A model generated the notes under the pieces. That model had not been told where the DNA came from. It searched no databases and was given only the letters and a program-made list of their open reading frames with translations. From the NCBI RefSeq assembly GCF_003018255.1, contig NZ_CP027440.1: DNA of 64,000 bases. The stretch is one strand, 5' to 3'. Both the position numbers and the translations under genes were made by a program. Within the stretch, counting starts at the first letter, position 1, and each line of letters opens with the position of its first letter. Positions 53,781-55,362 of the stretch are shown here, in pieces. The DNA is from Escherichia coli (GTDB lineage: Bacteria; Pseudomonadota; Gammaproteobacteria; Enterobacterales; Enterobacteriaceae).

Positions 53781-53872
53781 GCAAAACTGCCTGATGCGCT
53801 ACGCTTATCAGGCCTACACTATCCTGCAATATATTGAATTGGCAAGATTTTTGTAGGCCGGATAAGGCGTTC
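53781..53872. repeat. REP palindromic units between entD and fepA; the last unit is interrupted by the IS
   Basis: gcctgatgcgctacgcttatcaggcctac ... gtaggccggataaggcgttc ends at the IS left end; the matching gccgcatccggc half is found at 55312-55323 after the IS right end. Confidence 0.75.
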
Positions 53873-53904
53873 TGAACTGAACCCCAAAACCTGGACAGTT
53901 TCAG

Positions 53905-54780
53905 TTAACCGGCTTTTTGATACTCAGTCCGGTATTCTAACGGGCTGAGTCCCCCAAGACTGAGTTTTATTCTTTTTTGATTCCAGTAAGTTATGTATTC
54001 GTTAACGGCATTTTCCAGCTCTTCTACACTTCTGTAGTCCCGGCGATAGTACATTTCTTCTTTCAGGTGACCTAAGAAATTCTCCATTACCGCATTATCA
54101 AGACAGTTGCCCTTGCGTGACATGCTCTGCACTAACCCTTTGTCTGCCAGGGCAGACTGATAACTTTTTATCCGGTAATGCCACCCTTGATCATTGTGGA
54201 GCAGCGGTTTTTCTCCTTCTGCAAGGCTTTCCAGCCCCTTATTTAACATGCGCTTCACCAGCTCCTCTGTAGGCCTGCAGGCAGTTTCCCACGCCACGAT
54301 TTCCCCGTTAAACAAATCAAGTATCGGGGACAGGTACAGTTTTTGTCCGCCAGCCCTGAATTCGGTGATATCTGTCACCCATTTCTCACAGGGAGCTTCC
54401 GCTTTGAACTGCCGCTGAAGGATATTTTCTGCAGCGAGTCCCATATTTCCCCGGTAAGACCGGTATTTCTTCAGGCGCACAGGAGACTTCAGGCCGAGCT
54501 GTTGCATCAGTTTTCGCACCGTTTTGCCACTGAACTTAAGACCTCTTTTCTGAAGCTCACAATGGATCCGCCGGTACCCATAACATCCCCGGTGTTCATG
54601 GAAGATGGAGGCTATGAGCTGTTTCACATCAGCATACTTGTCCTTAGCCTTCTGCAGTGACAGCTGGTAGTACAGCGTGCTTCTGGCCAGCCCTGCAGCC
54701 TTTAACAGGTCAGACTGGCAGTGTCCGCACTTCAGGCTCCGGATGACTTTCGTTTTTTCTCCAGCTCCTGGCGCTTTTTT
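53905..54780 (-). CDS. IS3-family transposase OrfB (DDE integrase core), expressed by -1 frameshift from orfA
   Basis: ORF 53905..54627 plus upstream in-frame extension to slippery site; DDE-region sequence ...HNDQGWHY... Confidence 0.8.
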   Translation of the reverse strand, partial: KKAPGAGEKTKVIRSLKCGHCQSDLLKAAGLARSTLYYQLSLQKAKDKYADVKQLIASIFHEHRGCYGYRRIHCELQKRGLKFSGKTVRKLMQQLGLKSPVRLKKYRSYRGNMGLAAENILQRQFKAEAPCEKWVTDITEFRAGGQKLYLSPILDLFNGEIVAWETACRPTEELVKRMLNKGLESLAEGEKPLLHNDQGWHYRIKSYQSALADKGLVQSMSRKGNCLDNAVMENFLGHLKEEMYYRRDYRSVEELENAVNEYITYWNQKRIKLSLGGLSPLEYRTEYQKAG

Positions 54781-55262
54781 TCCAGGAGATGCTCCTGCAT
54801 GGCTTTCAGATATGCATTTTCTGCGCGAAGATAACGCAGCTCATTCTTCATCTCTTCCGGCGTCATGTTTGCCTCGTTTTCATGGGTATCATCAGAACGG
54901 GTCATGCTTTTCTCCTTCCTGCGCCTGATAAAGGCCTCATTACCAGATTTGCGGTAGCCTTTTATCCAGTTTTTAACCATGTTGTGGCTGGGAATGTTAA
55001 ACCGGGCAGCTACCCGGGGTAGAGACTCAGAATGCCCGAGAGCATAAAGAACCACGCAAAGTTTATCTTCAGGAGAATAGCTACGCTTGTGTCTGCAATC
55101 CAGTGCCCGAGGACCGTGAAGAAGAAAAAGATTAATCCAGTGTGAGAGGCTGGTGTGAGAAAGTTGAAAGAGTTTTGCCGTAGAAATGATGCCTGCATGA
55201 CCAGCCAGGTAATGATTTACAGCGGCAAGTTTTACTTCAAATGAATGTTTCATAAACTGCAC
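54732..55262 (-). CDS. IS3-family transposase OrfA (HTH/leucine-zipper)
   Basis: 176-aa ORF; A7G slippery heptamer (plus-strand ctttttttc, 54775-54783) near its 3' end. Confidence 0.8.
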   Translation of the reverse strand: MQFMKHSFEVKLAAVNHYLAGHAGIISTAKLFQLSHTSLSHWINLFLLHGPRALDCRHKRSYSPEDKLCVVLYALGHSESLPRVAARFNIPSHNMVKNWIKGYRKSGNEAFIRRRKEKSMTRSDDTHENEANMTPEEMKNELRYLRAENAYLKAMQEHLLEKKRQELEKKRKSSGA

Positions 55263-55362
55263 CTTCAGATGTCAGATTATGTCCAACATTTGGGGTGCAG
55301 TTCAGTTTCACGCCGCATCCGGCATGAATTACGCGCACTTTGTCAACAATCTGACGTTAGCA

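Follow-up and report, generated by a model that had tools for sequence, protein, structure and literature searches.

IS1397 and its preference for the loops of REP units were described in the 1990s. The REPs of E. coli have been shown experimentally to be a specific insertion target of IS1397, with the choice of target by IS1397 and ISKpn1 determined by the transposase, and the IS110 family element IS621 also has a specific insertion position within E. coli REPs (PMC1525189). ISKpn1, which enters the palindromic units of Klebsiella pneumoniae, belongs to the same IS3 family as the element described here and pursues the same strategy of targeting REP-type palindromes, although, set beside our element by description, it is a separate element that differs in REP type and host. 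IS621 likewise shares the targeting of REPs, however its transposase family is unrelated, and the element described here has an IS3 architecture. IS621 is not known to have a DDE rve-type orfAB frameshift organisation, terminal inverted repeats of the kind found here, or a 3–4 bp target duplication.

The element lies between fepA and entD, which have been described as a Fur-regulated operon in which entD also has promoters of its own (PMC10763504), in agreement with the iron-regulated co-transcription of the two genes given in a preliminary description of this DNA. The window, by which we mean the whole 64-kb stretch of E. coli DNA analysed here, shares with the fepA-entD operon of K-12 its gene order, its orientation, its two REPs and their linker, and its Fur-controlled promoter region. 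It differs from K-12 by a split REP, a divergent entD (81% nucleotide and 77% amino acid identity, compared with 97.4% for the neighbouring fepA), and the region downstream, where the neighbour of entD in K-12 is IS186, with hokE beyond, and the window has an IS630 remnant and an islet of low G+C content. Both genes are intact, with fepA (746 residues, 55363–57603, minus strand) aligning to K-12 fepA without gaps, and entD (206 residues, 53131–53751, minus strand) scoring 366 bits against the NCBIfam EntD model NF007604, for which the cut-off is 169. The bidirectional fepA-fes control region (57604–57845), Fur-regulated in K-12, differs from that of K-12 at 3 of 242 nucleotides, with the AT-rich promoter/operator stretch at 57764–57845 identical. 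A search with a strict 19-nt Fur-box consensus, allowing up to 3 mismatches, returned no match anywhere in the 64-kb window, and the Fur-controlled region is therefore assigned by its identity to K-12.

The element itself spans positions 53873–55304 (1432 bp, with the transposase on the minus strand), close to the length of ~1.44 kb given in the preliminary description. The sequence TGAACTGNACCCCAAA is found at just two sites in the 64-kb window, 53873 and 55304 (0.1 expected by chance), and it is this confinement that defines the extent of the element, the ends of which are TG...CA. The terminal inverted repeats are imperfect and 25 nt in length (TGAACTG...CAGTTCA), with the left end in the element's own orientation, TGAACTGCACCCCAAATGTTGGACA, lying next to orfA at 55280–55304 (minus strand), and the right end, TGAACTGAACCCCAAAACCTGGACA, lying on the entD-proximal side at 53873–53897 (plus strand). 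A repeat finder returned inverted-repeat arms at 53872–53897 and 55280–55305 (26 nt, one flanking base included), which are 85% complementary.

Alignment to IS1397, the check originally proposed, was made against RefSeq-annotated copies. The best matches outside the window's lineage, all in complete E. coli genomes, are 99.4–99.5% identical over all 1432 bp and are labelled by RefSeq as ‘IS3-like element IS1397 family transposase’. This identity lies above the level of about 95% of nucleotides by which isoforms are recognised and, judged through the RefSeq naming of these near-identical copies, the element is IS1397 itself and not merely IS1397-like. The insertion already appears in the annotation of RefSeq genomes, and the targeting of a REP is ordinary behaviour for IS1397.

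The coding organisation of the element is that of a two-frame transposase. On the minus strand, orfA (54732–55253, stop codon included) encodes 173 residues with two helix-turn-helix domains (Pfam HTH_28 twice), and contains an A7G slippery site for −1 programmed frameshifting (A AAA AAG, 54774–54781, minus strand; frame codons GAA AAA AAG). Translation with a −1 shift at this site gives a 449-residue OrfAB fusion that stays open to position 53905, the orfB part of which (53905–54781, minus strand) contributes HTH_21 and the rve DDE core, and RefSeq relatives have a coding sequence annotated ‘programmed frameshift’ that matches this fusion. OrfAB scores 375.8 bits against the NCBIfam model NF033516 ‘IS3 family transposase’ (cut-off 160), with Pfam domains HTH_28 (two), HTH_21, rve (E = 9e-20), rve_2, and rve_3. 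Folding of the RNA 3′ of the slippery site was no better than that of shuffled sequence (z = −1.2). Two successive frames that partly overlap, with a −1 shift at an A6G or A7G motif yielding orfAB, the DDE transposase, the imperfect TG...CA repeats, and a duplication of 3–4 bp are together the characters by which the IS3 family is recognised, and the initial reading of an IS3-family element with orfA, orfB, and an A7G site is borne out, with the ends, frames, and slippery site all present.

The point of insertion falls exactly in the loop of a REP, with ...GGCGTTC followed by the IS and then by GTTTCACGCC... (junction sequences including unique flank, TTGGCAAGATTTTTGTAGGCCGGATAAGGCGTTCTGAACTGAACC and GCAGTTCAGTTTCACGCCGCATCCGGCATGAATTACG). 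The REP, which is of the Y type, is split into an entD-proximal half at 53853–53872 (GTAGGCCGGATAAGGCGTTC) and a fepA-proximal half at 55310–55323 (ACGCCGCATCCGGC), as had been proposed, and these halves held on precise alignment, with the REP intact at the same place in K-12. The empty site of K-12 MG1655 is the uninterrupted palindrome GTAGGCCGGATAAGGCGTTCACGCCGCATCCGGC, which folds at −21.3 kcal/mol (z = −4.5), compared with no fold for the entD-proximal half alone, and the REP of strain 2013C-4282 is likewise uninterrupted. Joined together, the two halves form a canonical REP, which is also present intact five times at 1889–2322.

In K-12, the 174-nt interval between fepA and entD holds GCCTGATGCGCTACGCTTATCAGGCCTAC, a linker of ~35 nt, and then GTAGGCCGGATAAGGCGTTCACGCCGCATCCGGC, and the opposed, tail-to-tail orientation of the two REPs about this linker is that of a BIME (BIME-1 or RIP-like). 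The second REP of this BIME, of the Z type, remains intact in the window between the IS and entD (GCCTGATGCGCTACGCTTATCAGGCCTAC, 53789–53817, with a hairpin of −12.9 kcal/mol), with the linker between the two REPs at 53818–53852 (minus strand). The Rfam model of the sRNA ES036 (CssrF) matches the linker at 53810–53851 on the minus strand, that of entD, at 44.4 bits (gathering score 37.6). This match is probably to a repeated linker motif rather than to a locus-specific sRNA, and a literature search on the family name CssrF found nothing useful.

The loop of the split REP is duplicated, with GTTC to the left of the IS (53869–53872), as defined by the K-12 empty site and the occupied site of strain ETEC4085, and GTTTC, with one extra T, to the right (55305–55309). 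The extra T is common to strain DETEC-S792, the flank of which is 100% identical, and ETEC4085, in which an IS occupies the same point, has a clean 4-bp duplication (GTTC/GTTC). The empty sites of strain 2013C-4282 and of metagenome scaffold L023 both have a GTTC loop, which indicates that the extra T of the window's lineage is secondary. Elsewhere in the window, at 1820–2324, a 100-bp BIME unit is repeated 5.1 times in tandem, with one Y-type REP per copy; three of these REPs are exact matches to the canonical unit in which the IS lies and two have 1–2 mismatches, and all five are unoccupied.

Insertions of IS1397 elsewhere follow the same rule. Flanks were read for ten copies from eight other loci (rluC–yceF, yfiE–srmB, next to rrf, hybG, pepN, tRNA-Pro, nadS–ettA, and ybiE–ybiJ), and all copies lie inside a REP loop, with both orientations to the REP represented and with a 3–4 bp duplication (GTTT, GAAC, GCCA, GTTC, GTCA, TGGC, TGGC, and GTA), in agreement with the REP-specific insertion established experimentally. 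The window copy is like IS1397 in its sequence, its length, its orfA/orfB organisation with A7G site, its TG...CA ends, and its insertion in a REP loop, and differs in nothing essential, the differences being confined to a handful of substitutions, the extra T, and the rare location between fepA and entD. The suggestion in the preliminary description that the element behaves like the REP-targeting IS1397 is consistent with both its near-identity to RefSeq IS1397 copies and its position in a REP loop.

IS1397 is common in the species, with 3496 of 5426 complete E. coli genomes matching the element, and 1707 having a copy that covers at least 80% of its length. Between fepA and entD, the element is found in only 4 of the 5426 complete genomes, when flanks are included in the search. 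Three of these four (DETEC-S792, JNE23-011, and JNE112863) belong to the window's lineage, sharing its entD allele and having an IS that differs by 0–1 nt from that of the window, with the window representing a fourth strain, the near-perfect match of which to the others covers the islet through to the IS and gives way to mosaic sequence outside this stretch. The same insertion has been kept in the window strain, in the three complete genomes, which come from China and Japan, and in two metagenome contigs that are broken within the IS.

The fourth occupied genome, ETEC4085, has a K-12-like entD and surroundings. Its IS differs from that of the window by 17 nt (1.2%), compared with ~5% for the adjacent flanks and 2.45% for fepA, and the distance to the commonest copy compared is 8 nt for the window copy and 13 nt for that of ETEC4085. 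Descent of both insertions from a common ancestor is less likely, as each copy is nearer to the commonest copy and the divergence of the IS is lower than that of the flanks and fepA. These comparisons favour two separate events, and the ETEC4085 insertion is probably an independent hit on the same REP. In the ETEC4085 IS, 12 differences from other copies cluster within ~300 bp of orfB (window-equivalent 54103–54404), which suggests that part of a more divergent IS1397 variant was acquired there by recombination or conversion.

The surroundings of the locus vary within the lineage. Over 55000–64000 the window hardly differs from JNE23-011 as far as ~57000 and diverges from it by 3–5% thereafter, and differs from DETEC-S792 only in 55000–59000, a mosaic divergence that indicates frequent recombination across fepA-fes-entF. 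The fepA of DETEC-S792 (L001 7764–10003) is annotated as frameshifted; the window, JNE23-011, and JNE112863 each have an intact fepA. Strain 2013C-4282, with its empty REP, has three tandem hokE copies downstream of entD (L020 7101–8258).

From these features of the sequence, we consider it very probable that the element is a known IS1397 which reached a REP loop by ordinary transposition, and which would be neutral or mildly polar for entD. The element entered the fepA-proximal REP of the fepA-entD BIME at its 4-nt loop, GTTC, which was duplicated, with the recognition of REP units by its transposase accounting for such insertions everywhere. On this reading, entD would still receive transcription that starts at the intact Fur-regulated promoter of fepA or at the transposase gene and reads through, and further transcription from promoter activity in the 121 nt left between the IS and entD.

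It is possible, though rather doubtful, that the IS is instead an old, inactive relic that marks the lineage, without present activity or regulatory role. Among the copies compared, the commonest recurs unchanged at six loci in different strains, and the window copy departs from it by 8 nucleotide substitutions and 5 amino acid changes; carrier genomes have just two places matching the element, such that the window copy may have lost activity. The RefSeq product name in carrier genomes, given only as ‘IS3 family transposase’, and the extra T gained by the right target duplication also fit a relic. However, the window copy has two uninterrupted reading frames, an intact slippery site, and intact terminal repeats at both ends, none of the 22 variable sites among the copies compared falls in the terminal repeats, and five conservative-looking substitutions are no proof of inactivity. 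The window copy is complete and apparently intact.

A regulatory consequence along the lines of the preliminary description is a reasonable proposal but appears unlikely. In this reading, entD would be cut off from Fur-regulated transcription starting at fepA and left to IS-derived or read-through transcription, with a weakened or less iron-responsive synthesis of enterobactin. Such an effect would follow from the description of fepA-entD as a single Fur-regulated operon (PMC10763504), into which 1.44 kb of mostly poorly translated RNA has been added. The distance from the fepA stop to the entD start, 174 nt in K-12, is ~1.61 kb here, and the REP hairpin next to fepA is destroyed. The occupation of the site in only 4 of 5426 genomes, though at least 1707 carry the element, could also reflect a fitness cost. 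However, the minus strand carries fepA, the IS transposase, and entD alike, with the ORF list confirming that entD lies downstream of the IS in the same orientation, as first described. A consensus scan found no terminator-like sites on the minus strand inside the IS, and a crude C/G scan of the poorly translated orfB region, which is G-rich, found no C-rich, G-poor stretch of the Rho-loading type. The orfB portion of the transcript, not being C-rich, offers no obvious Rho loading region and, together with the co-orientation of the IS and the lack of terminator-like sites, this makes read-through to entD plausible. Furthermore, EntD is a catalytic phosphopantetheinyl transferase, and a low level of the enzyme would therefore probably suffice. 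Additionally, of the three complete genomes of the lineage, two retain every ent and fep gene intact, the third being that with the frameshifted fepA, and 121 nt of native sequence remain between the IS and entD, a gene reported to have promoters of its own (PMC10763504). A literature search on polar effects of IS3-family elements found nothing useful. The unchanged fepA-fes promoter/operator stretch, the purifying selection on entD, and the persistence of the insertion among its carriers also speak for little disturbance, and overall the sequence evidence leans towards a mild effect on entD.

A promoter scan returned 3 sites, compared with 5.6 in shuffled sequence, and with this total below the shuffle expectation the promoter-like sites listed upstream of entD, at 54123–54094 (inside orfB) and 53845–53818 (in the linker), carry no statistical weight. 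The linker site, TTGCCA-16-GATAGT, differs from the K-12 linker by three clustered substitutions at 53819–53821, and was considered as a compensatory promoter arising in response to the IS. This was rejected, as the variant also occurs where the IS does not: GATAGT is found with an empty REP in both strain 2013C-4282 and scaffold L023, and the 121-nt stretch is matched at ≥99% in 52 genomes, compared with 4 that have the IS at the site.

The entD of the window is a rare, foreign-like allele, found in only 3 of the 5426 complete genomes, with all others matching at ≤83%. Its divergence from K-12 begins at ~53690, ~60 nt inside entD, and continues to the 3′ end of the gene. The dS relative to K-12 is 0.65 for entD, compared with 0.11 for fepA, and with an entD dN/dS of 0.20 the gene looks like a functional, imported allele under purifying selection. 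A scan of 100,044 species representatives for the donor of this allele found nothing nearer than 78% amino acid identity, and a protein search found only mosaic relatives, at 84–89% amino acid identity, in metagenome assemblies. The central part of entD is 93–97% identical to the entD of scaffold L023, in which the REP is empty and the fes-fepA region is ~93% identical to E. coli. Downstream of entD, the low-G+C islet (~46330–51704, ~5.4 kb, 27–33% G+C) encodes a hypothetical protein, a permease, a TolC-family protein, an HlyD-family protein, an ABC ATPase, and a 406-residue carbon-nitrogen hydrolase (apolipoprotein acyltransferase-like), and is flanked by an IS4-family remnant (~45330–45780) and a frameshifted IS630 transposase (51852–52787).

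That the IS arrived as a passenger of the recombination that brought the divergent entD and the islet, and not by local transposition, is suggested by its presence beside the entD allele in every sequence that has the latter (the window, three complete genomes, and two metagenome contigs) and by the short distance (~180 bp) from the entD breakpoint to the IS, but is very unlikely, given that this 180 bp and fepA beyond the IS are ordinary E. coli sequence (96.7–97.4% identical to K-12), so that the foreign tract ends short of the IS and the IS is not the recombination junction, that common E. coli copies of the element share 99.4% identity with this IS, that L023, a relative of the donor-type entD, has an empty site, and that ETEC4085 has an IS at the site alongside a K-12-like entD. 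Within the lineage the window-type entD allele and the IS1397 just upstream of it always co-occur, and it is still less probable that the insertion is adaptive, taking the imported entD from strict Fur control and changing the production of enterobactin or of another phosphopantetheine-dependent product.

As a discovery, the ordinary transposition of IS1397 into this REP loop carries little weight, with both the REP-loop preference of IS1397 and the RefSeq annotation of the insertion already in existence. However, the locus shows cleanly, in a natural setting, the targeting of a REP within an operon, and could be used to test the effect of a co-oriented IS on a downstream gene, and the rarity of the occupied site, together with its tie to an imported entD allele, makes the insertion a useful marker of the lineage.
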